From a virus (lineage: Duplodnaviria > Caudoviricetes), in the IMG/VR virus record IMGVR_UViG_3300048598_000375, positions 1-28,682 of that record: a stretch of 28,682 nucleotides of DNA; one strand, given 5' to 3'. Shown piece after piece: positions 3,464 through 23,290 of the stretch. The first letter of the stretch is position 1. Every line of letters starts with the position of its first letter. The notes under the pieces were generated by a model. The model ran no database searches. It had not been told where the DNA came from and saw nothing but the letters and a program-made list of their open reading frames with translations. The translations under genes were made by a program, and so were the position numbers.

Positions 3464-4291
3464 TTAAGCACCCAAACCTAACGCAGAAAAATCGCCCGAT
3501 TCATAAACTTGATGGACATAAACTGCTTTAGGAATTTGAATCAGACAGTTTTGGTCCGTGCTTTTTTCGTATCTGACCCAGAGATACTCCCAACCTTTTT
3601 TCTCAATGCCTGATATTGAACCGATCGTTATATTTGTTTTGTTCGGGCTTGCAGCGAATTTGAAATTCAGTTCATAATCACCTGTCCTGCCATGTTTCGA
3701 GCCACTTGCACCCATGAACAATACTTCGCCGGCCTCAAAGCCATGCCAGGCTTGTGAATTTACCTTACTTGTTAATCTAAAAACTGATGTTTTAAAAGCA
3801 GTGCTGATAAAATCGCGAGCGATCCGCTTTGTCTCATTAAAATTAAAAACAGGAACAATAATATCGACGCCATTGACTGAATTGTCATCGACATTGATCG
3901 CTCCCTTAAAATCTGGAGGATTATCACCGTATGATCTAACGGTTAGTGGTGCGATTGTTTGAGTAATTTTCTGGCTGCCACCGCCCGTATCAAAACTGAA
4001 TTCGATATCATCTGTATCTCTGCTGTTATAACCATAATATACGGTACCAATCCATATATTATCTGCAATCTGCTCAACATCGCAGCCAGCTCGCGGTATT
4101 AGGGCCAGACCCCATTCTGCTGGCGCATTTTCCTCAAGGCACAAGATCGCGTCGCCATCATCGCCCGGCTGATTGAATTGTTCCGGCGGTGTAGCTGCAT
4201 CCGGCATTATGATATATTCAACCGTTGCGCTTCGGGTATTGCCGCCGGTTCTTTTTCTGCCTGACCATCTTTCCTGGATACACAATGCCAT
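3464..4291 (-). CDS. Putative distal tail/baseplate hub protein (275 aa)
   Basis: First gene after the tape measure; beta-rich sequence. Function is positional inference only. Confidence 0.6.
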   Translation of the reverse strand: MALCIQERWSGRKRTGGNTRSATVEYIIMPDAATPPEQFNQPGDDGDAILCLEENAPAEWGLALIPRAGCDVEQIADNIWIGTVYYGYNSRDTDDIEFSFDTGGGSQKITQTIAPLTVRSYGDNPPDFKGAINVDDNSVNGVDIIVPVFNFNETKRIARDFISTAFKTSVFRLTSKVNSQAWHGFEAGEVLFMGASGSKHGRTGDYELNFKFAASPNKTNITIGSISGIEKKGWEYLWVRYEKSTDQNCLIQIPKAVYVHQVYESGDFSALGLGA

Positions 4292-4294
4292 TAC

Positions 4295-6367
4295 TTAATC
4301 CCCGAACTCTACCTCATTGCCATCCATATTGTCAGCCATTTCTTCTGTTGCCTCGGCTGTTCGAGTTGTGGCATCGGCTATTTTTTGCATAACGCCGCCT
4401 GCGCCAATTTGGCCCAGACCAAATGCACTGAATGTCCCCGCCGTTGATGCCTTGGTTAAACCTGTATTTGCCTCCCAATCTTTTTGCGGCAGAGGTAATT
4501 TACCCTTTGGTTGTACAGGTTCTTTTGCCTTGGCAATTGCAGCATTGAATTCTTCTTTTGTTTTAGCAAGTTCATCAGCAACACCTTTTTTGCCTGAGTT
4601 AATGCCATCAATCGTATTTTGCAAACCTTCTTCTACATACTGGTTTGCTCCGGCAAGCCCTAAATCAAATTGCTCTTTTGCACGTTTCCTTTTTTCGCTG
4701 CGATTCTTTTCTATTTCGTCAAGTTCAGTTTGTGTTTCTTTTTCCAGTTGAAGTCTTTTAGTATTTGCATCTTTTTCAGCTTTTTCTTTTGCAGCATTAG
4801 CATTATCATCGCGTTGTTGCTTATCATCTGAAAGCATATCATCCATTTGCTTTCGTGCTGAACCTTCATCGAAGTTAGGATCAGATAATTTCTTCCACCA
4901 GATCCAGACATTCATCAATTTCTTGGCAATCCAATCAATTGTATTTCCCCAGAATTGTTTGAAGCCGGCCCATGCTTTTTTAAAAACCTCAACCGTTGTT
5001 ATCCATGCACCTTCAAGAAATGCACCTGATTTGACCCATGCTTTCTTTAAAAAAGCAAGAGTTTCAATCCAGGCAACCTGAATTCCATAAACTGCTGCAT
5101 CCCAGCCAACTGCAATTGAATAAACTGCCGAATACCATATTTCCATAATTGCAAGTTTTATGCTGTACCATATTCCAAGCATCCATTCTTTCGCACGCAG
5201 CCATTCCATTTTTACAAAAAGCCACGCGATGCGTGCAGCCAAACCAATATCACCTTTAGCAAATGCGGCCGCGATACCGCCGATTGCGTTTGTTGCATCT
5301 TCTTTTAAAGTATTAAAACAACCACCCAACCAATTAAGCATCTTACCGCCCAATCCTGTCATCCAAAGCAGTGCACCTACGCATAAACCTATTTGAATTA
5401 TCAAAGTTCCAAGAGGAGAGAGCATTGCAGCTAAAACAGTTCGCAAAATTCCAAAGCCACCGCGAATAAACCCAAGCATCTTGCTGCACACAATAAGAGT
5501 TTTGCCAAAAAGCATGAAAGCTGCGCCGCCTGCAACAAGAACTGTTCCCAGCCACAGAACCATAGTCACAACACCCCTATGTTCTTTGATCCAGCGGGTT
5601 GCAATGCCGATTGTTTCAATCATTTTATTCGCCCATTCTTTGAGCAAAGGAATGACAGCACTGCCAATTGCAGCAGTTAAGCCGTTTTTAATTATGTACC
5701 AGAGTTTCTTAAGCGTTTCATGGAATTCTTCACCAGCTTGAACATCTTCATCGCTCATTACCGCGCCAAGTCTTTGAAGTTCAGCCTTATATTCTGCAAT
5801 TGCGCCGGCGCCTTTACTAAGTAGCGGTATTAAATTTGCACCTGCCTTGCCAAAGATTTTTAAAGCGATAGTGATTCTCTCGGTTGGGTTTTCGATCGAT
5901 GCAATTCTATCAGCTATAAGCATGAATAATTCATCAGGTGATTTGTCTTTCAAATCAGCAGATGCAAGTCCCAGTTTTCCAAAGGCTTCTACCTGTGCCT
6001 TTGAGCCTTTATTAAAAGCGGCCAGATTTTTGTGCATGAAAATAAGTGCCTTGCCAAGCGATTGCATACTTATGTCATTCTGATTTGCGGCAAAGCTAAG
6101 ACCTTGCAGTGAAGTTACACTTACATCTACTATTTGAGACAACCTGGCAATATCATCTGCGAAACTACTGGCGTATTTAGCGGCAGCAATAAGCGGAGTA
6201 ACAATGGCTGTTCCGATGCCCATCATCTTTCTGCCAAAAGATGAGATAGTATTACCCCATTTTTTAATGCTAGATTCAGCACTGCGCAGGCCACGCATTA
6301 ACGCACTTTTATCTGCGAAAATCTCAACGTATGCACTGCCTGCCTTTATTGCACCTGAATTTGCCAC
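4295..6367 (-). CDS. Tail tape measure protein (690 aa)
   Basis: N-terminal AGSAYVEI motif, Ala/Lys-rich helical core (ALKIFGKAGANLIPLL), hydrophobic central segments, 11-residue Trp periodicity (IWYSIKLAIMEIWYSAVYSIAVGWDAAVYGIQVAWIETLAFLKKAW); follows the tail chaperones. Confidence 0.93.
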   Translation of the reverse strand: MANSGAIKAGSAYVEIFADKSALMRGLRSAESSIKKWGNTISSFGRKMMGIGTAIVTPLIAAAKYASSFADDIARLSQIVDVSVTSLQGLSFAANQNDISMQSLGKALIFMHKNLAAFNKGSKAQVEAFGKLGLASADLKDKSPDELFMLIADRIASIENPTERITIALKIFGKAGANLIPLLSKGAGAIAEYKAELQRLGAVMSDEDVQAGEEFHETLKKLWYIIKNGLTAAIGSAVIPLLKEWANKMIETIGIATRWIKEHRGVVTMVLWLGTVLVAGGAAFMLFGKTLIVCSKMLGFIRGGFGILRTVLAAMLSPLGTLIIQIGLCVGALLWMTGLGGKMLNWLGGCFNTLKEDATNAIGGIAAAFAKGDIGLAARIAWLFVKMEWLRAKEWMLGIWYSIKLAIMEIWYSAVYSIAVGWDAAVYGIQVAWIETLAFLKKAWVKSGAFLEGAWITTVEVFKKAWAGFKQFWGNTIDWIAKKLMNVWIWWKKLSDPNFDEGSARKQMDDMLSDDKQQRDDNANAAKEKAEKDANTKRLQLEKETQTELDEIEKNRSEKRKRAKEQFDLGLAGANQYVEEGLQNTIDGINSGKKGVADELAKTKEEFNAAIAKAKEPVQPKGKLPLPQKDWEANTGLTKASTAGTFSAFGLGQIGAGGVMQKIADATTRTAEATEEMADNMDGNEVEFGD

Positions 6368-10831: not shown

Positions 10832-11185
10832 CTAAATTTCCTTTGTATGGAGGCGAATGATTTTTCCAAAGGGATCGCTGTACCGCCAGCATCCATCGTT
10901 TATAAATAACGCTTCATATACTTTCCCATCGACTTCGATCCGATCAGCTGCTTTTGGAGCCGTCAATAGACCATCAATAATCAGATCAGCAGCATCAAAT
11001 AAGAAATCCGTTACCTGCCCGCCAATCTTAAAACCCGATTCATCTTCTATTTGATAATCCGTCTTTCCAAAACTGGCGCAGATACTGACACTATCTGCGC
11101 CACGCATGTAAATTACAGTTTCCGAGGCATTGGCTTTTAATTTATTAGCTAAAAATTCAATTCCTTTTTTCAGCAAATTAGTCAT
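10832..11185 (-). CDS. Head-tail adaptor/head closure protein (gpFII-like, 117 aa)
   Basis: Start moved to ATG 11185 (TAATG overlap with the upstream stop). Motif PKAADRIEVDGKVYE resembles the P..GD.I..DG..Y pattern of head-closure proteins. Confidence 0.7.
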   Translation of the reverse strand: MTNLLKKGIEFLANKLKANASETVIYMRGADSVSICASFGKTDYQIEDESGFKIGGQVTDFLFDAADLIIDGLLTAPKAADRIEVDGKVYEALFINDGCWRYSDPFGKIIRLHTKEI

Positions 11186-11931
11186 TACGCTTCCTGTGCC
11201 CATGTCCCGCGAATTGCCTTGATGCGATAACCATCGACGCCATCAGCAACAAATGTGACAAAGTCACCTTTCTTGGCTGTGGCCTTGGTATTAGACAATT
11301 TCTTGCCATCACCACCTGCTGCAATACCCAGACCGCCGACGTTTTTATCCGCAGCCTGGAAATCCACTTCAACTAGTGCACCACCATCGGCCGCCGCATT
11401 CATAATTGTAAATTCAAGTCCTGCAGCTGTTGCCGGCAGAGTAATTACTGTATTATCCGCCGTACAATCGTAGCAAACACCGGATTCCGTAGCCGCTGCA
11501 TTTGCACTTGCAGCTTTGGTAATTCTTGCAGCACCCGCAAATGTCGGAATACGAGCATCGAATTTATTCAAGGCAACATAAACAAATTGATCCGCAGCTA
11601 CAGCACCAATTACTGCTGCGCCAAGAAGGACATCACCAGCAGCTTGAGCGTCGCCGCCAATTTGCGTTGCTGCCCCGCTTCCTGCTGTACCACCCTGCGG
11701 GTCACCATCGGCGTCAAACCAGACAGGAAGACCAGCCGCAAATGCTTCATTCTTTTTAGGAACTGCAAAGATTCCTTGGACCGCTAGTGCTCCTTTTGTA
11801 TTTGCCGGGATATCGAGTTTAGTTATACCGACAAGACCTTTTTGCATCACGATAGTACCGGCAGCTACATCTACAGCCGGTGTATAATCGATTGATTTGC
11901 CATCTTGATAGAAATTTATTGTATAAGCCAT
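11185..11931 (-). CDS. DUF2190-like capsid decoration/cement protein with C-terminal extension (248 aa)
   Basis: N-terminus FYQDGKSIDYTPAVDVAAGTIV...GITKLDIPANTKGALAVQGIFAVPK is typical of DUF2190. It follows the capsid gene and has about 120 extra residues. Confidence 0.82.
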   Translation of the reverse strand: MAYTINFYQDGKSIDYTPAVDVAAGTIVMQKGLVGITKLDIPANTKGALAVQGIFAVPKKNEAFAAGLPVWFDADGDPQGGTAGSGAATQIGGDAQAAGDVLLGAAVIGAVAADQFVYVALNKFDARIPTFAGAARITKAASANAAATESGVCYDCTADNTVITLPATAAGLEFTIMNAAADGGALVEVDFQAADKNVGGLGIAAGGDGKKLSNTKATAKKGDFVTFVADGVDGYRIKAIRGTWAQEA

Positions 11932-15695: not shown

Positions 15696-16358
15696 TTATT
15701 TTACAGATTCAAATGTGAACTGAAATGAATATTTTTTCAGGCTAATGTTCGGAATTGCTCTGGCAGCTAAAACAATTCTTTTATCAAAATCACCAGCCAC
15801 AAGAATCCCTCTCACAGGTTTATTGTCCTTTTCAGTAACTGCTGTCATATACGCCAAAATTTGCGTAATTACTGTCTGTGGTGCATCACCAGCTTTCAGT
15901 TCAATAACAACTATTTGCCCTTTGTCATCGCAAGCAGTTATATCTATTCTTCCTGCTTCTGTTACTTGTTCTTTACCGCCATCGATTATTTGAAGACCGC
16001 TTTCCAATTGCGCAATATTTGCACGTAACGCTGCTTGCATATCTCGTTCAAGCCCGAATGTAACCTCCTGTGCTTCAGCTAATTCATCTTCTTGGGTATC
16101 GTCTTCGTCATCAAACAGCGTATCAGCGTAAGAAATATCTCCCTTTTCATCGGGCCTTATCATTAAAACACGGGTGGTTGATTCTTCCATTTCCCACCCC
16201 TTTTTTTTGAGGAATCTTCTAATTTCATGAGAAGTAGAGTTTTCAAAGTCTGACGCACCTTGAATATCTTTTGCATTTACCCTGAACCATTCTCTCAATG
16301 GACTTATGTTAGGGGTTCCATCAGGATTTTTAGTGATCGCAAAATGATGTTTAATCAT
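15696..16358 (-). CDS. NucS/DUF91-like PD-(D/E)xK endonuclease domain protein (220 aa), probable moron
   Basis: C-terminal LERDMQ...GRIDI...VVIELK...QILAYM...VRGILVA motif set; unknown N-terminal domain and acidic linker; own SD (GGAG) and AT-rich upstream region. Confidence 0.85.
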   Translation of the reverse strand: MIKHHFAITKNPDGTPNISPLREWFRVNAKDIQGASDFENSTSHEIRRFLKKKGWEMEESTTRVLMIRPDEKGDISYADTLFDDEDDTQEDELAEAQEVTFGLERDMQAALRANIAQLESGLQIIDGGKEQVTEAGRIDITACDDKGQIVVIELKAGDAPQTVITQILAYMTAVTEKDNKPVRGILVAGDFDKRIVLAARAIPNISLKKYSFQFTFESVK

Positions 16359-16425: not shown

Positions 16426-16596
16426 TTATTTTAGCACGGGCCTTTCGATGGTAGTAAGCCGCTTTCCGCAGTTTCGGCAGATACGGTATCTGATAATTTG
16501 CCTATTGGCAATACGCGTCCCTTGAACACTAAAATGCCTGCATCCGCAATTGCCGCATTCAAGTCCGACTTCTTTTTCTTTATCTTCTTCATTCAT
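16426..16596 (-). CDS. Zn-ribbon protein, Ogr/Delta- or NrdR-N-like, candidate late regulator (56 aa)
   Basis: CGNC-x22-CRNCGKRLTTIER; start moved to ATG 16596 with AAGGA upstream, overlapping the terminase stop. Confidence 0.72.
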   Translation of the reverse strand: MNEEDKEKEVGLECGNCGCRHFSVQGTRIANRQIIRYRICRNCGKRLTTIERPVLK

Positions 16597-18844
16597 TAAC
16601 AGCCATCCTTTTCTGTTTTTGAAGTTCTGACAATGTAATCCTCTCGCGTTTCGCACGGGCGACAGCCTGTCCTGTAATAGTGCACCCGCACATTGAGGCC
16701 GCTACAGAGCAGCCGACCATGCAATCAAGCCAGTGGTTGTCGAGGCCGCCAACTTTTGGTGACCATTGATAAACAACTCTGCCATGTCCTTCAGTTCGTA
16801 CCCAGGTTTCAGAACCTGCGATATGCTCGGCGAATAATGAATGCTGATGGCCCCCTTTGCCGAAAACAGTCAGTGATCCATGGTCCCCCGCTGCTACGAA
16901 AAATCTCTCGTGAATAAATGTTTTCCAATAATTTGTATCAATAGCTACATGGGTAAATTCACCAGTTTTATTTATATTGGGAATATACCAGTGATGGCCA
17001 TGCCTTTCGCCCGGCTTTCGTTTGTAGGTTGACATTGGTTTATTTGCGGCTTTGATACCAACACCTTTTGAAGCCATGATTGTGCCGCCAAGTTTATGGC
17101 GGATATTTTCAACTATGCCCGGCATATAGCCGCTGTCAATCAGGCAACGGTCAATTTTCATAACACCAGTTCCACGATTCCAGTCTCTATTTAATAAATC
17201 GCTGCATAATTTTTCCAAACCTGCTTGAATCGCACCTTCTTTTTCCATACCGCGGTAAATATCCTGTAAACTGATCTGAGCTTTGCGAAGATTAAAGGAA
17301 GCCCTTTTCTGATCCGGATAGGTTCCATAATCAACAACAAAACCTGTAAAATCCTCTGCCCATGCACATACCGTATAGAAAAGAAGTTTATCATGCACAT
17401 CGATAAACATCGTAAGGTACTGACAACCCAGCGGAACATCGCCCCGCCTGCGGCCATTAGTTTTCTCCATAACTTGCTCGATGGTTAAAACCTGTTCATC
17501 AGATTGTTCTGCAATCGGATCGTTTTGATATTCAGCATAAAATGCAGCTTCGTCGCGGATCATCAGGTTCATAGCATGCTGAATCGCAGATACTTCATCC
17601 TCATTGTGCCTTTGCGGCCAGGCAACTTTACTGCCAAAATCCATTGCAGCCCTGTTTTGAATATAAAACTCAGTTGCTTCCTTGCCGCCATTGCCGGCCC
17701 GCAAACTATCAGCGCGAATTTCTTCATACTTATCCCAAAGTTTCATATCAGAAGGTAATGCGTAAACCATCTTTGTACACTGCCCTTGCCATTCAGGATT
17801 TTTATCCGAGTCGAGAATCTGATCAGCCAAATCATTGCAGTAGATTTTGGTACAGGTTAATAGACCGGATATTTTCTTACCCGGCCCTGCCATACCAAGT
17901 ACATCACCATTTAATGTACTCAGCCGCTGGTTAGTCTGGTCAACTGATTTGGCTGATTCTCTGGTTTGCGGATCATCGATTAAAACAAGATCAGGCCGAA
18001 TGATCTTTCCATCCATGGTTGTATGAATCTGACCTCGAATATTACTATCCAAACTATCAACAGTAATTACAGAACCTGATGCGATGCTGCCATTGATAGT
18101 TGGAATAACTATTTTATGGGTGCCCCATACCGGATAAGTAAGTTCACCGCGATATCGCTGACCACGTTGTTTATGTGCACTATTTTCCAGGCACTGAATT
18201 GGGTAAATGATTTCCGGGAAATCTGCCAATAATAAATCATTTCCTAGCATTGTAGCTTGAACACTCTGAAATAAATTCAAAGATTGCCTTGTGGCTGAAC
18301 CAATCAGACAAACGTATTTTCTTGCGCCAATTAAAATTGCCCATATAGCAGCCGATCTTGTTAACGCAGATTTACCGCTTCCGCGAGGCATTGCAAATGC
18401 AAACAAGCCGCCATGGAGAACGGACTGTTCTATTTTGGAAATTACATTCAGGTGATCATCCGACCATGGCAAATAAAAAACATCAGCAAAGTAGGTCTCA
18501 CAAAAGAATCTAAAATCGCTGCATGCTTTCTCTCTTCGTTCTTGATTTTCAATTGCTGGAATTTCACCAATATCCTGCGCCTCTTTGCGGGCAGCATTTT
18601 TAGCAATTAGATCTTTTAATCTTGATTCTTCCACAGACTGTTTCTGCTGTTTTGGTTTTTCATATTCTTTCGCAAGCCATGAAACATACCGCACGAGATT
18701 AACGTGCTTTCCATCACCAATGCGGTATGCGGCAGAATTCATCTGCCAACGCAGTTGATTTTGTGACAAAACATTGCCAAGCGGCGTTGCGTTCATCAAT
18801 CGAAGCAGTTGTATCTGTGATAAATTATTTACGTCAATTGCCAT
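16589..18844 (-). CDS. Terminase large subunit with GpA-like nuclease domain and N-terminal HTH-like extension (751 aa)
   Basis: Walker A MPRGSGKS, Walker B LVLIDD, EYQNDP junction, nuclease motifs FIDVH, LIDSGY and DNHWLDC. Confidence 0.92.
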   Translation of the reverse strand: MAIDVNNLSQIQLLRLMNATPLGNVLSQNQLRWQMNSAAYRIGDGKHVNLVRYVSWLAKEYEKPKQQKQSVEESRLKDLIAKNAARKEAQDIGEIPAIENQERREKACSDFRFFCETYFADVFYLPWSDDHLNVISKIEQSVLHGGLFAFAMPRGSGKSALTRSAAIWAILIGARKYVCLIGSATRQSLNLFQSVQATMLGNDLLLADFPEIIYPIQCLENSAHKQRGQRYRGELTYPVWGTHKIVIPTINGSIASGSVITVDSLDSNIRGQIHTTMDGKIIRPDLVLIDDPQTRESAKSVDQTNQRLSTLNGDVLGMAGPGKKISGLLTCTKIYCNDLADQILDSDKNPEWQGQCTKMVYALPSDMKLWDKYEEIRADSLRAGNGGKEATEFYIQNRAAMDFGSKVAWPQRHNEDEVSAIQHAMNLMIRDEAAFYAEYQNDPIAEQSDEQVLTIEQVMEKTNGRRRGDVPLGCQYLTMFIDVHDKLLFYTVCAWAEDFTGFVVDYGTYPDQKRASFNLRKAQISLQDIYRGMEKEGAIQAGLEKLCSDLLNRDWNRGTGVMKIDRCLIDSGYMPGIVENIRHKLGGTIMASKGVGIKAANKPMSTYKRKPGERHGHHWYIPNINKTGEFTHVAIDTNYWKTFIHERFFVAAGDHGSLTVFGKGGHQHSLFAEHIAGSETWVRTEGHGRVVYQWSPKVGGLDNHWLDCMVGCSVAASMCGCTITGQAVARAKRERITLSELQKQKRMAVNE

Positions 18845-19028
18845 TGTTTATCCTGCTGTTAAGCCATGCGCCATAATGTACTAAATTAATTGTTCCGTCC
18901 GCCGCTGCCGGCGCCCCCTGCAAGATATGTTTCTGGACAATCTCAACTTGCAATCCAAGCATTTTAGCTGCCGTTTCAGGCGTTAATGCCGCCGGGTTTA
19001 TCTGTTTTGTGTCATTTTGTGTAGTCAT
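18834..19028 (-). CDS. Small terminase-like winged-HTH protein (64 aa)
   Basis: LTPETAAKMLG...VQKHILQGAP...DGTINLVHYGAWL resembles the Nu1/MerR-type wHTH pattern; overlaps the large subunit start. Confidence 0.65.
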   Translation of the reverse strand: MTTQNDTKQINPAALTPETAAKMLGLQVEIVQKHILQGAPAAADGTINLVHYGAWLNSRINNGN

Positions 19029-19138
19029 AATAAATTAATGTAAGTCCTTTAAAATAATGTATTTAATTACTTGCTAATACGTTTTTTTGAGATATTACAT
19101 GCATGTCCTTAAAGACAAGATTTTTGAAAGGAAAAACA

Positions 19139-19345
19139 ATGGAAAACGCAGAATACAAAGCAGCAAGATTCGATATCGCAAACCTGCTTGGCTGGTTTGA
19201 ATGCGAATTAGCAAAAGAGTCAAATCTCGGCTCGCCAATCGATGCCCGGCGCGAATTGATCCGGGCACTGGCGGTATTTAGCGGTATATCAGAAAAACAA
19301 ATCAAAGAATCACTGGAAGAATCAAATGAAAGGACAGGCAAATGA
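19139..19345 (+). CDS. Hypothetical protein (68 aa), first gene of the inverted island
   Basis: SD GAAAGGA before ATG 19139; helical; ATGA-coupled to the next gene. Confidence 0.7.
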   Translation: MENAEYKAARFDIANLLGWFECELAKESNLGSPIDARRELIRALAVFSGISEKQIKESLEESNERTGK

Positions 19346-19497
19346 AGATCGAAATCACAAAAGGAAAATACAAAGGAATTCGCGGCAGAGTAGTTGGAGT
19401 TTACACTGATGGGCGTTACGACATAAACATCATCAAACCGAAAACTGGCCAACCAAAGATCATGATTATTAAAATTAATAATTGCAAGGAGATCTAA
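19342..19497 (+). CDS. KOW-motif small protein (51 aa)
   Basis: Below the ORF track cutoff. MKIEITKGKYKGIRGRVVGVYTDGRYDINII... fits the KOW pattern (I..G.YKG..G.V); SD AAGGA. Confidence 0.7.
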   Translation: MKIEITKGKYKGIRGRVVGVYTDGRYDINIIKPKTGQPKIMIIKINNCKEI

Positions 19498-19500
19498 ATC

Positions 19501-19752
19501 ATGAAGGTAAAAACAATCATACTCGAAGGCGAAACAGGATACATAGCAACAATCAGCAGAGAAGAAAAAAGTATCGTGTGCCATATCGCAGATAACACCG
19601 GAAATTGCGTAAACATCCATCTTGTATCGCCGGATGATCGGGACGATATGTTCAGCATGGCCGAATGCATACAATTCCAGCTTGATGGATGCCGTGGTAC
19701 CAACAGCATGAAACATGAATATTTCAGAATGATAACATTTTTTGCAGATTAA
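19501..19752 (+). CDS. Hypothetical protein (83 aa)
   Basis: SD AAGGAG; starts 3 nt after the previous stop. Confidence 0.72.
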   Translation: MKVKTIILEGETGYIATISREEKSIVCHIADNTGNCVNIHLVSPDDRDDMFSMAECIQFQLDGCRGTNSMKHEYFRMITFFAD

Positions 19753-19764
19753 GGAGTTTTGACA

Positions 19765-19935
19765 ATGAACGAAGCAGATATCCAGGAAATTATCACAGAT
19801 TCCATAAGCGATCAGGATGAAATCATAAGGGTCCGGACATTTGAAGAAGCCGGAGTTCTTACCACAAATAACGGACTTGTCATCCGAACCAGCGATGGCA
19901 GTGAATTTCAAATTACAATTATTCAAAGCAGATAA
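19765..19935 (+). CDS. Small acidic hypothetical protein (56 aa)
   Basis: Below the track cutoff. SD AAGGAG; MNEADIQEIITDSISDQDEIIRVRTFEEAGVLTTNNGLVIRTSDGSEFQITIIQSR. Confidence 0.72.
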   Translation: MNEADIQEIITDSISDQDEIIRVRTFEEAGVLTTNNGLVIRTSDGSEFQITIIQSR

Positions 19936-19965
19936 TAAACCATTATTTTTGAAAGGAAAATTACA

Positions 19966-20448
19966 ATGAAGAACGAAGAAATTAAAATCAGCAAAATCTA
20001 CGCAATTAAGGTTGGCAAAAACACCGTCGGTGTCCGTATCATGAGCGAACATAAGGATGGCGGATGGGTTGGTTCCAATATTAAAACCAACAAAGAACTT
20101 ATTATCAGGTCTGCCGACAGGTTCATCGGACTCTACGAGGCAAAGAATGACAAAGCAAAATCCTCCAAGCCCTCTAAAAAGGAAAAGCAGTTTTCCCCGA
20201 AACCCGAAAACGTCAAACCATCCAAACAAGGCGGCTTGACTATCGCCGCCCAAATTCTTCAGGAAGCTGGCCAGCCGCTGAATTGTCAGGAGATGGTTAA
20301 GCAGATGCTGGAAAAAGGTCTGTGGAAGACCGATGGCAAGACACCGGCAGCGACTATTTACTCTGCGATAATCCGAGAGATCAAGGAAAAAGGTCCCCAG
20401 TCCAGATTCCGCAAGACCGAGCGCGGTAAGTTTGAATTTGCCAAGTAG
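19966..20448 (+). CDS. HARE-HTH (HB1/ASXL/restriction endonuclease winged HTH) domain protein (160 aa)
   Basis: C-terminal AAQILQEAGQPLNCQEMVKQMLEKGLWKTDGKTPAATIYSAIIREI...FRKTERGKF; Lys/Pro linker; small beta N-terminal domain. Confidence 0.85.
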   Translation: MKNEEIKISKIYAIKVGKNTVGVRIMSEHKDGGWVGSNIKTNKELIIRSADRFIGLYEAKNDKAKSSKPSKKEKQFSPKPENVKPSKQGGLTIAAQILQEAGQPLNCQEMVKQMLEKGLWKTDGKTPAATIYSAIIREIKEKGPQSRFRKTERGKFEFAK

Positions 20449-20456
20449 CGATAACA

Positions 20457-21752
20457 TTATTTTTTCTCCGAGACAACCCCAGCTTCAGCAGTTGGGGTTT
20501 TGTCGTTAGCAATCATTTTCTTTCTCTCCGCAAGCGTCATGCAATCAAGTCTAGCCACTGAGTAAGTATATTCACCATCACGGTATGCTTTCCGGCCTGT
20601 AAACTGTTCCCATCTGTTTTTTATCACGTCGCAATACACTGGATCTATTTCAAGACCATAGCATTTCCGCCCAGTCTGCTCGCAAGCAATCAGCGTACTT
20701 CCGCTGCCAAGAAAGCCATCGAAAACAATCGCTCCGGGCACGGAACTATTTGTGATGCCTTTTATGCACAGTTCAACCGGCTTCATTGTGGGATGGAGTT
20801 TTGAATTGAGCGGACGGTTAATTTCCCAGACTTCCGTTTGGGTTCTGTCGTCTCCAAAGCTGCTCTTTCCGAACCAGCCGAAAAAACAAGGTTCATACAT
20901 TCTCTGATATTTTGCAGGGGATAAAACCAGCTGCTGCTTTTTCCAGATAATTGTCGCAGACCAGTGGCAGCCCATTTCAATTAGCCATAGTCGCATTCGC
21001 ATACCTTCCGGACCTGAAGCTCCCCACATGTAAATATCGCCCGTATTGAATTCCTGAAAAATCTCATACATCTTGTGGCAGAAAATACTCCACTCGTCTG
21101 TGGACATGGAATCATTTTTGATGGATCTTATTTTATGGCGGGGATTTTTCGAACTTCCGTAATCGACATTATACGGCGCATCAGTGAAAATCATGTCTGC
21201 TTTGTCGCCCTTCATTAATTTAATTACATCGTCGCGATTGGTGCTGTCGCCGCAGAGAAGCCTGTGATCACCTAATATCCAAAGATCGCCCGTTTTTGTT
21301 ACAGGTTCCGCCGGCGGTTCGGGTACATCGTCTGGATCGGTCAACCCATCTTTTATGCCGGGATTAAGTATTTTAGCGAGCTGGTCACTATCGAAACCAA
21401 GCAGTTCGAGATTGAAATCCATCGACTGCAAATCTTTTAGTTCGATTGGAAGCAGTTCATAATTCCATTCCGCAATTGTAGAGGTTTGATTATCCGCAAT
21501 TCTGTATGCTTTTATTTGTGCATCAGTCAAATCCTGGGCAACATGCACAGGAAGTTTGTCCAAACCTAACTTCTGGGCCGCCTTATAGCGGGTATGACCG
21601 ACGATGATTACCCCATCTTTATCTACCACAATGGGCTGTCTAAATCCGAATTCCTTCAAACTTGCCATAACCGCATCGACCGCCTTGTCATTTATGCGGG
21701 GATTGTTTTGATATGGCTTTATTTCTTCAATGCTAAGTAATTCTATTTTCAT
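20457..21752 (-). CDS. ParB/Srx-domain plus N6A/N4C DNA methyltransferase fusion (431 aa)
   Basis: N-terminal PYQNNPR...FGFRQPIVVD...IVGHTRYKAA; GDLWILGDHRLLCGDST; motif IV as DAPY; HPTMKPV; motif I FDGFLGSGST (beta order). Confidence 0.93.
   Translation of the reverse strand: MKIELLSIEEIKPYQNNPRINDKAVDAVMASLKEFGFRQPIVVDKDGVIIVGHTRYKAAQKLGLDKLPVHVAQDLTDAQIKAYRIADNQTSTIAEWNYELLPIELKDLQSMDFNLELLGFDSDQLAKILNPGIKDGLTDPDDVPEPPAEPVTKTGDLWILGDHRLLCGDSTNRDDVIKLMKGDKADMIFTDAPYNVDYGSSKNPRHKIRSIKNDSMSTDEWSIFCHKMYEIFQEFNTGDIYMWGASGPEGMRMRLWLIEMGCHWSATIIWKKQQLVLSPAKYQRMYEPCFFGWFGKSSFGDDRTQTEVWEINRPLNSKLHPTMKPVELCIKGITNSSVPGAIVFDGFLGSGSTLIACEQTGRKCYGLEIDPVYCDVIKNRWEQFTGRKAYRDGEYTYSVARLDCMTLAERKKMIANDKTPTAEAGVVSEKK
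20472..20504 (+). terminator. Intrinsic terminator of the inverted island, embedded in the methyltransferase 3' end
   Basis: AACCCCAGCT-TCAGC-AGTTGGGGTT running into a short T tract on the + strand, about 25 nt after the HARE-HTH stop. Confidence 0.6.
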
Positions 21753-21778
21753 AAAAATCCTATTTAAAATTATAAAAG

Positions 21779-21961
21779 TTATTGTTTTTGAGGGCTTAAC
21801 AATTTTTGAAGTATGTAGCTGGTTCTATTTAAACCTAAAGCACGTGCCCGTTTTGATATAATCGCTCTTTCCAAACGCGATGCCCGAAAAGTTATCATGT
21901 AACTTCGCGGTTCGATAGAATGGCTACAATAAATGCAACGTTTTTCTTTCTTTTGACCCAT
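21779..21961 (-). CDS. Ribbon-helix-helix (MobC/CopG-like) protein (60 aa)
   Basis: ITFRASRLERAIISKRARALGLNRTSYI fits the RHH strand-helix-G-helix pattern; SD GAAAGGA. Confidence 0.65.
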   Translation of the reverse strand: MGQKKEKRCIYCSHSIEPRSYMITFRASRLERAIISKRARALGLNRTSYILQKLLSPQKQ

Positions 21962-22018
21962 TTCTTTCCTTTCTAAAGAAAATGTAGTTTGCGACCGAAT
22001 GTCTTATTTAAGGGGACC

Positions 22019-22062
22019 GTTCCCGCCGCCAATGCGGAGAATTCCGCACAGGGAGGACCCGT
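22019..22062 (-). other. Lambda-like cos packaging site (cosQ plus cosN-like)
   Basis: Minus strand ACGGGTCCT (lambda cosQ is GGGTCCT), then 23 nt, then GGCGGCG. In lambda, as recalled, the same 7-mer of the cohesive end follows after 24 nt. Consistent with a GpA-type terminase and lambda-family portal. Confidence 0.65.
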
Positions 22063-22070
22063 TCAATAAA

Positions 22071-22149
22071 CGTCGCACCACGTTGCACCACGTCGCGAGA
22101 TGTCGGCAGATTCGTATAAAGGTGCCTGCTTTCAACACAACGCAACGTG
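22071..22149. repeat. Short tandem and inverted repeats next to cos
   Basis: CGTCGCACCA CGTTGCACCA CGTCGC (10-bp period) and inverted pair CACGTTGC (22079) / GCAACGTG (22142). Confidence 0.55.
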
Positions 22150-22170
22150 CGCAAACGTGAGCGATTATTT

Positions 22171-22440
22171 TCAATTGGCTTGGTCATCATCAAATTGCTG
22201 CTCACAATTAAAAACATTAAATGCGTCATCCAGCTTTTCATCAAAGGTAAGTCCTTCGCCATATCTTTGACGCTTTATAGCTAAACGCGCGTATTGTCTG
22301 TTAGCCAGGTTATGATTGAACCTGGCTTCACTTTCTTTAGAACACTTGTGATTATTTTCAAGCGGTTCACCACATACCACGCATTTCCTTTTAACTGTGG
22401 ATAGATATCGAAGCTCAAACATGATTTCAAATAGTTCCAT
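22171..22440 (-). CDS. Hypothetical protein with CxxC...HxC motif (89 aa)
   Basis: Starts directly after the lipoprotein stop; CVVCGEPLENNHKC. Confidence 0.6.
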   Translation of the reverse strand: MELFEIMFELRYLSTVKRKCVVCGEPLENNHKCSKESEARFNHNLANRQYARLAIKRQRYGEGLTFDEKLDDAFNVFNCEQQFDDDQAN

Positions 22441-23073
22441 TTAATTCTTCTTTACTAATCTTGCTTGGCCAATATTCTGATACAACTGCGTCTCAACAGC
22501 TTTAACTTCGGGCACTGTTGATTGCGATACCTGCTTCATTGTCAGCTCAACACCCTGCTTATGTGCATCGTACTTAGCAAGAGCCTCGGCTGCTTTTTGT
22601 GCATTCTTTTTCGCCATTGCCGCTGCAAACGCTGCCGCTAATCCCAGACCAACATCAATCAGCGGTGCGTAAGGATTAAAAGGTGCACTTGCTGCATTTG
22701 CGGCTCTGGCTCCTTGCAGCACAGTTGTCAGGCCATCATCGGGATTTGTGTACTGGGCCGTTTTGATTGCGCTGGCAATAACCTGTGTCTTATCCTGAAC
22801 TGCATTGATTGTGCTCTGAAGTTTTTCAACTTTCGCGATTGCGTTGCTATCGATGGCGCCGTTTTGTTTAAGCGTTTCCAATGTCGCAGTCGTCTGCTCT
22901 TGAAACTGGTCCACCTGACTGCTTAACTGCTGGGTCTGGTCAGCTAAGGCTTGGAGGTCATCGGGCTTGATGTTTACACTTTGACAACCGCCAAGCCATA
23001 AAGCCAAAGTGGTAGCGATTAAAATTATTACAATCGCTACATCCCATTTCGTAATTGTTTTCACATTCTTCAT
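22441..23073 (-). CDS. Coiled-coil lipoprotein with C-proximal hydrophobic segment, u-spanin-like (210 aa)
   Basis: Start moved to ATG 23073 (SD AGGAG). Signal peptide ends in lipobox LGGC (Cys30), then a Gln/Ala coiled coil, then PLIDVGLGLAAAFAAAMA followed by KK. Confidence 0.7.
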   Translation of the reverse strand: MKNVKTITKWDVAIVIILIATTLALWLGGCQSVNIKPDDLQALADQTQQLSSQVDQFQEQTTATLETLKQNGAIDSNAIAKVEKLQSTINAVQDKTQVIASAIKTAQYTNPDDGLTTVLQGARAANAASAPFNPYAPLIDVGLGLAAAFAAAMAKKNAQKAAEALAKYDAHKQGVELTMKQVSQSTVPEVKAVETQLYQNIGQARLVKKN

Positions 23074-23101
23074 TTTTCGTACTCCTAAAACAAATTGGTT
23101 A

Positions 23102-23290
23102 TTATTTACCGGCAACATTTGCCGATTTTTCTTTTGAATTCATCAGTGGACCATTAAGAACGTTTTTGCTGCCGCATCGAACACAGGGTTTGATTACATC
23201 CTTCTCTTTTCCGAAATACATCATCTGGCAATCAAGACAGTAATGAGCATAAAAATATTTTCTTTCGTTTTTAATTATTGTTGTATTCAT
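23102..23290 (-). CDS. Zn-ribbon protein (62 aa)
   Basis: CLDC-x14-CVRCGS. Confidence 0.65.
   Translation of the reverse strand: MNTTIIKNERKYFYAHYCLDCQMMYFGKEKDVIKPCVRCGSKNVLNGPLMNSKEKSANVAGK

Follow-up and report, generated by a model that had tools for sequence, protein, structure and literature searches.

A codon-aligned antisense reading frame kept open beneath an inverted gene island in a family of tailed phages

The island locus

The stretch of DNA analyzed here, referred to below as the window, is a virus record of 28.7 kb (IMGVR_UViG_3300048598_000375, 28,682 nucleotides) from a tailed phage, as judged by its Pfam-matched gene set. Its minus strand encodes primase-like, helicase, ParB-methyltransferase, terminase, portal, capsid and tail proteins (Pfam), and five small plus-strand genes, here called the island, sit between the methyltransferase and a putative gene for the small terminase subunit (terS). 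Beneath the entire island runs a single minus-strand open reading frame (ORF), which we call the bridge (Table 1), and comparison with relatives marks it as a strongly selected and apparently undescribed feature.

The island has the makings of a transcription unit of its own. A promoter-like element lies beneath the last bridge codons, and its conservation points to a predicted island promoter, although a sigma-70 scan of the window did not flag it; GAAAGG preceding the ATG of island gene 1 is likewise conserved in the alignment of 15 loci. The hairpin that would close the island transcript has a folding z of -5.2 on the plus strand and -1.2 on the minus strand, where it is not followed by a U run. 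At 20331-20317, a weak terminator-like site of the minus strand folds no better than shuffled sequences and was discarded. The HARE-HTH protein of island gene 5 has 403 homologs, the named ones from Planctomycetota and the closest from Sedimentisphaerales and Phycisphaerales; no match to its gene was found in the GenBank phage set, and by that route no cultured member was found. The putative terS has no match in Pfam or PHROG, its name resting on position.

Table 1. Features of the island locus in the window.
Feature	Position	Strand	Notes
Methyltransferase (ParB-N + N6/N4 DNA methyltransferase)	20457..21752	-	Pfam PF02195, PF01555; cistron upstream of the bridge ORF
Bridge ORF	19063..20457	-	464 codons, ATG start; antisense to the entire island
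Start junction	20455..20469	-	GGAG (20466-20469), 8 nt, then TAATG (methyltransferase stop overlapping bridge ATG)
Island gene 1	19139..19345	+	68 amino acids; not in register; overlaps gene 2 (ATGA)
Island gene 2	19342..19497	+	51 amino acids; no known family; in register with bridge
Island gene 3	19501..19752	+	83 amino acids; no known family; in register with bridge
Island gene 4	19765..19935	+	56 amino acids; no known family; in register with bridge
Island gene 5	19966..20448	+	HARE-HTH winged-helix protein, Pfam PF05066; in register with bridge
Promoter-like island element (TTG ... ACATGCATGT)	19071..19106	+	Conserved in an alignment of 15 loci; beneath the last bridge codons
Intrinsic-terminator-like hairpin and T run	20475..20499	+	Predicted end of the island transcript; within the 3' end of the methyltransferase gene
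Putative small terminase subunit (terS)	18834..19028	-	Position and conservation; overlaps the large subunit start
Large terminase	16589..18844	-	Pfam PF20454; 24-29% identity to phage terminases

The open frame in the window and its chance expectation

The bridge ends 34 nt before the putative terS, which starts at 19028, and its ATG overlaps the methyltransferase stop in a TAATG at 20455-20459. An earlier, sequence-only reading of the window had described this ORF, and its coordinates proved correct throughout; the second TAATG coupling that it had placed near 11185 is found at 11183-11187. It had also held that four consecutive island genes share the register of the bridge and avoid TTA, CTA and TCA, the codons that read as stops in antisense, and the counts agree: the genes at 19342, 19501, 19765 and 19966 lie in one frame, codon-aligned with the bridge and separated by spacers of 3, 12 and 30 nt, and none of their 33 Leu and Ser codons (12 Leu and 21 Ser) is TTA, CTA or TCA, against 27% of Leu codons and 27% of Ser codons in the 25 other ORFs of the window. 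The gene at 19342 has no Leu or Ser codon at all, and island gene 1, in another frame, uses TTA once and TCA four times. Synonymous resampling from genome-wide usage with the register fixed, the check that the same reading had proposed, gave a mean of 8.85 stops and an open frame in none of 20,000 trials, so that a shadow ORF of this kind is not frequent by chance; the longest in-register antisense open run among 23 other window genes is 136 codons.

Conservation of the frame in relatives

Scans based on the helix-turn-helix (HTH) gene returned 242 loci (cited below by their L numbers), each of three alignment scans contributing its best 80. We kept 154 loci with a terminase N-terminus upstream and dropped 89, 8 of which have a stop in the HTH match; the 154 fell into 117 clusters at 90% nucleotide identity and these into 43 groups at 80% terminase identity. 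An island was taken as bridged where one frame is open from a point no more than 150 nt from terS as far as the stop of the HTH gene. As the start of terS we took the closest ATG preceding the profile match, which probably places some starts too far downstream.

Across the HTH match, the antisense frame in register is free of stops in 233 of 243 sequences (window included), the other two frames in 1 and 4. One minus frame spans the inverted island in 108 of the 117 clusters, as against 0 of 234 for the other minus frames, and a bridged member occurs in 37 of the 43 terminase-identity groups. The open stretches measure between 178 and 1719 codons as the island cargo changes, and synonymous sites are near saturation while stops remain absent. 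A further scan with the terminase alignment (that of terS being too variable for scanning) avoided choosing loci by an island gene; it gave 80 loci in 73 clusters, which partly overlap the HTH-based set, and 42 of the 44 clusters with both terS and the HTH gene in view are bridged. Three clusters of this set have the methyltransferase but no HTH gene, and no inverted island was seen in them; in the island-free locus L329, terS begins directly on the stop of the methyltransferase, its ATG overlapping it (ATGA). The bridged clusters are kin and not independent origins, and on these alignments the bridge appears near-universal in one Planctomycetota phage family.

The codon ban and the register of island cargo

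Expected numbers of antisense stops were computed from the codon use of each locus's own terminase and methyltransferase. For the HTH genes of 115 clusters, 2 antisense stops were seen where 174 were expected, and for the 23 clusters below 50% GC the figures are 0 and 89.3; control genes at high GC carry 0.49 antisense stops per 100 codons. In the in-register genes of the 23 AT-rich clusters, TTA and CTA make up 0 of 329 Leu codons and TCA 0 of 348 Ser codons (0 of 677 together), while other A-ending codons are used freely. Gene 1, being out of register, provides an internal control for the codon use of the island: in 21 AT-rich loci it has these codons at 34 of 153 Leu and 57 of 115 Ser positions (91 of 268). 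Even beneath gene 1 the bridge frame has no stop where 9.1 were expected, an outcome reached in none of 500 simulations.

Among the conserved plus-strand ORFs of bridged islands, called by a substitution-pattern rule made for this analysis, 192 of 210 are in register, and 15 of the other 18 are gene 1. Cargo genes for Fic, Doc and amidoligase proteins (six genes counted) are in register and free of TTA, CTA and TCA, and in a Fic gene at 43% GC these codons account for 0 of 67 Leu and Ser codons. The cargo includes a MazE-like and Doc pair, Fic genes, and pairs of amidoligase and glutamine-amidotransferase genes (L183:6472-7221, L178:6631-7863, L017:6679-8307), families that suggest functions in host conflict or lysogeny.

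The sequence-only reading had inferred that selection keeps the frame open, had proposed to check whether it stays open despite different island content, and had named stops at the expected rate as a refutation; the comparison of relatives bears the inference out, and shows that the bridge ORF is real and kept open by selection.

A cistron-like start and end

In 65 clusters the upstream gene ends inside the open stretch, and in 54 of these a start codon overlaps the upstream stop at -1 or -4, so that the coupled start noted in the window recurs among its relatives. A Shine-Dalgarno match of at least 4 nt precedes 49 of the 54 overlapping starts, compared with 3.8% of 1871 internal start codons. 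We use these position-defined counts, since the motif counts from our "ribosome walk" are circular, the choice of start itself scoring the Shine-Dalgarno match. Directly upstream of the bridge start, stops resume (5.6 per 100 codons). The upstream gene varies and may encode a methyltransferase, a Mom-family protein, a radical-SAM-like protein or DUF1937, a nucleoside deoxyribosyltransferase-like protein. The last is a separate gene in L035, L038, L113, L132, L196 and L212, and in five loci (L058:1236-3263, L200, L220, L225 and L241; Pfam-confirmed for two) it has no stop of its own and is fused into the bridge frame. At the other end, 101 of 106 bridges stop no more than 90 nt from terS; in the AT-rich clade that includes the window the stop lies 18-83 nt before terS in 20 of 21, with variable ends.

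The encoded product

Several lines of evidence argue that the antisense amino acids are an unconstrained shadow of the sense genes. Substitutions were compared in 32 close pairs, disjoint by locus id with a few from a shared lineage. The ratio of sense-silent, antisense-altering changes to doubly silent ones (pSN/pSS) is 1.03 for the HTH gene and 1.09 for genes 2-4, with controls at 0.99 (terminase) and 1.03 (ParB); with only 215 and 54 doubly silent sites to draw on, weak or local constraint could escape. Fourfold sites are near control divergence. Purifying selection on the residues of the overlapping frame, the mark of a functional overlapping protein gene, was thus not detected in this comparison. 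The product ranges from 172 to 1358 amino acids, tracking island content, and entire blocks of it appear or vanish together with island genes.

Phe, Leu and Cys make up 28% of the residues of the window product, which the sequence-only reading had described as rich in these residues and as a shadow more than a folded protein, a description that fits what we find. No homolog of the 464-residue product was found among 6919 candidate proteins of 255-812 amino acids, the ORF has no Pfam or PHROG match, and an Atlas search gave no match at 0.9, the best, at 0.82, being of lead level only. AlphaFold2, working from a shallow 18-row alignment, gave a pLDDT of 27 and no confident fold, a result that carries little information. 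The bridge products of 82 of 107 relatives do align to that of the window, a likeness to be expected, as the sense genes are shared.

Ribosome passage as the probable function of the frame

The trait under selection is an uninterrupted frame at which translation can be initiated, and this points to the passage of ribosomes. We favor, with a probability of roughly 0.6, the reading that the bridge is a cistron in which ribosomes, not the protein, keep the packaging-gene transcript from premature and probably Rho-dependent termination. In lytic growth one transcript would run from the methyltransferase across the island to terS and the large terminase gene, as we infer from the coupled ORF, the junction in L329, and a promoter scan of the window with no minus-strand hit between 19737 and terS. 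Ribosomes would re-initiate at the start overlapping the upstream stop, and their passage would mask 0.5-4 kb of pyrimidine-rich antisense RNA; in many GC-rich members it would also deliver ribosomes to terS. The island, with its predicted promoter and terminator, is probably expressed in the lysogen, and the cost of the arrangement would fall on its genes, which are locked in one register and barred from TTA, CTA and TCA.

Excerpts of PMC12360218 describe Rho as a silencer of antisense transcription and ribosomes as masking Rut sites. Rho scores above its family cut-off in four of five host genomes and is split in the fifth, and NusG is found in all five. Along the island region, the bridged strand has a U content of 0.268 compared with 0.185 in flanking mRNA, and is richer in YC in 106 of 108 clusters. 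The AT-rich clade spans the island without a tight hand-over to terS.

Several observations weigh against this reading. In nine of the 117 clusters no single frame bridges the island, and six of these have an intact terminase; a broken terminase occurs in 3 of the 9 unbridged and 7 of the 95 assessable bridged clusters, so that decay explains only some of the exceptions. The same frame resumes after one stop in L096 and after two close stops in L105, while in L020 and L078 part of it is missing although the terminase is intact. In L238 (3363-5221) the island genes change register and another minus frame is open beneath them (3570-5187), which suggests a bridge made of several cistrons.

A more general objection comes from other phages. 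In the outgroup Acidithiobacillus phage AcaML1, an inverted island with DUF3489 and DUF6900 genes lies between methyltransferases and terminase, and not one DUF3489-type island is bridged in the 26 clusters, out of 34, whose two flanks are both in view (58-68% GC), the longest open run covering at most 52% of the span; the DUF3489 genes have 12 antisense stops against 20.8 expected. Neither GC content nor layout thus explains the bridge, and phages can cross or circumvent islands of this kind without it, so that the need for it is not universal. Further, the window's own bridge has only GGAG as a Shine-Dalgarno sequence, and the C-over-G skew of the bridged strand is slight (0.005 against -0.035, higher in 71 of 108). 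Coupling of transcription and translation in Planctomycetota was not documented in the literature searched, and spatial separation has been speculated on for this phylum (excerpts of PMC8567305). The translation and transcription of the bridge, and the lytic and lysogenic timing, are here deduced from sequence. In the GC-rich members the bridge stop lies within 10 nt of terS in 56 of 85, which fits a hand-over of ribosomes equally well. Of what the sequence-only reading proposed, the comparison supports the selected open frame, the coupled start and the unconstrained product, and the hosts carry Rho and NusG; the ribosome escort across the island, and Rho polarity as the thing that it avoids, are probable, with mRNA decay, polymerase collision or a lost hand-over of ribosomes to terS as other candidates.

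Such a hand-over is the basis of one alternative, in which the frame carries ribosomes to the terS start by termination and reinitiation, restoring a coupling that the island interrupted, while transcription crosses anyway. The direct methyltransferase-terS coupling of L329 is as this would have it, as are the tight GC-rich junctions, many by ATGA or TGATG, and the strong Shine-Dalgarno sequence often missing at terS. We nonetheless consider it unlikely, since nearly all AT-rich bridges, that of the window included, stop at a variable distance from terS, and a new Shine-Dalgarno sequence at terS would seem far cheaper than the recoding of kilobases. Alternatively, ribosomes could shield the antisense RNA from RNase cleavage and pairing, or help the late polymerase win collisions, shutting the island off in lysis. 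The island's predicted promoter and terminator mean that opposing transcripts would converge over its full length; ribosomes help polymerases through collisions, resumption being about 13 times more frequent with a trailing ribosome (Hoffmann 2019, as cited in excerpts of PMC7457138), and non-contiguous operons switch phage genes via antisense transcription (excerpts of PMC11087260). Rho, however, is present in the hosts, and untranslated antisense RNA usually falls to it; we judge this explanation rather improbable. Both alternatives predict nearly the same sequence pattern as polarity, and the three may act together.

That the bridge is a true overlapping gene with a functional protein seems very improbable to us. 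Its start and stop signals are gene-like, most relatives' products align to that of the window, and long functional antisense genes have been reported in Pseudomonas aeruginosa (excerpts of 10.1101/2021.02.09.430400); these are outweighed by the want of any deficit of antisense-only changes, the unremarkable fourfold sites, a length that follows the island, the DUF1937 fusions, the missing homologs and Atlas match and, as weaker evidence, the missing fold. Hardly credible is a by-product of GC- or host-driven codon bias combined with a start junction left from an ancestral methyltransferase-terS overlap. Antisense stops are indeed rare at high GC, as the control genes show, and the bridge start junction resembles the methyltransferase-terS junction of L329; but the effect is strongest at 41-49% GC (0 against 89 expected), gene 1 of the same island uses the banned codons freely, the register is held by nearly all conserved island ORFs, the GC-rich islands of the other phage group are never bridged, and stops return directly upstream of the start.

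Relation to known systems

The principle by which translation itself is the function has precedents in phage P4 and in narnaviruses, neither of them named in the sequence-only reading. Excerpts of PMC10111431, summarizing Forti et al. (1999), describe the eta/kil ORF of P4 as a coupled ORF whose translation prevents termination, letting the late transcript reach downstream genes. The bridge resembles it at sequence level in its coupling to an upstream gene (54/65; 49/54), and by its sequence would play a similar termination-preventing part. Eta, however, lies over a same-strand promoter and the region of termination by CI RNA, and is a member of a protein family (excerpts of PMC10111431), whereas the bridge is antisense over several protein genes, varies with the cargo and shows no amino-acid selection; hallmarks of the P4 system (CI RNA or seqA, Eta/Kil homology) did not appear in window positions 18700-22500, where Rfam gave no match, or in the Pfam and PHROG searches of the ORF. 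The reverse ORF of ambigrammatic narnaviruses is codon-aligned, open and without homologs, tests on double synonyms show no protein function for it, and translation itself has been proposed as its function (excerpts of PMC8316113 and PMC8155312). Those traits are found again here, in a frame held open by avoidance of TTA, CTA and TCA with pSN/pSS near 1; but narnaviruses are eukaryotic RNA viruses with one gene per segment and no operon (same excerpts), whereas the bridge belongs to a tailed double-stranded DNA phage, holds several genes and their spacers in register, forms a cistron between two genes and, lying on no RdRp segment and with no near genome-length overlap, covers 1.4 of 28.7 kb. 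The bridge belongs to neither type.

In layout, with antisense genes that have a predicted promoter of their own nested in a row of same-strand genes, the locus matches the non-contiguous operons, or excludons, of Staphylococcus aureus and its phages, in which an operon is broken by antisense genes with their own promoter and which temperate phages use to change between lysogeny and lysis; the excerpts of PMC11087260 mention no frame left open over the antisense gene, and here co-transcription across the island is predicted. The olg1 and olg2 genes of P. aeruginosa are likewise long, codon-aligned, stop-depleted antisense ORFs, each with one mother gene and with amino-acid constraint (excerpts of 10.1101/2021.02.09.430400), whereas the bridge spans an operon and has no such constraint. 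The AcaML1-like islands share the order of methyltransferase, inverted cassette with a winged-helix-like gene, and terminase, but have no bridging frame, and in AcaML1 terS lies upstream of the methyltransferases. The annotated terminase small subunit gp33 of AcaML1 (JX507079.1, L243:6519-6980) matches no family, and a DUF6900 gene lies on the strand opposite to it; gp23 (L243:762-1295), upstream of the methyltransferases, matches the PHROG terminase small subunit, and the label of gp33 is probably a mis-annotation. The full-text literature searched, which mostly leaves out subscription journals and excludes supplements, yielded no account of an antisense bridge over several genes or of its phage family.

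We see about an even chance that these ORFs form a class of "bridge cistrons", translated genes without a functional product that replace an antiterminator and allow a replaceable antisense cassette (of regulators, Fic/Doc modules or amidoligase-glutamine amidotransferase pairs) inside a late operon, at the price of cargo forced into one register with three codons banned. If the favored reading is true, an ORF of kilobase scale can persist in a bacterial DNA virus for the sake of its translation, with no useful product, which would open to direct test the standing question of whether conserved antisense ORFs matter as proteins or as ribosome tracks. In Planctomycetota the bridge would also mark, at sequence level, that transcription and translation are coupled. 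Overlapping protein genes are commonly argued for from depletion of stop codons, and the bridged family shows such depletion in an extreme form without amino-acid selection. Register and codon ban also give a readable rule for cargo acquisition, and possibly a design for read-through of antisense cassettes in synthetic operons.

Further observations

The large terminases of L078 (1594-4902) and L105 (169-3456) carry about 350 additional in-frame codons near residue 159, possibly an intein. The large terminase of the window (16589-18844, minus strand) has a gpA-type nuclease domain (Pfam), but D3112-like phages, at below 30% identity, are among its best matches in the GenBank phage set. Between terminase and portal, a NucS-like PD-(D/E)XK nuclease gene (15696-16358, minus strand) lies in a stretch of 35% GC on the same strand as its neighbors. 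A lipoprotein-like ORF (22441-23118, minus strand) with a weak match to Rz-like spanins (E 2.5e-4) is found between the replication genes and the methyltransferase. Directly upstream of the methyltransferase, near a promoter-like site at 21768-21740, lies a small NikA-like ORF (21779-21961, minus strand; under the Pfam cut-off), a candidate regulator of the bridged operon.

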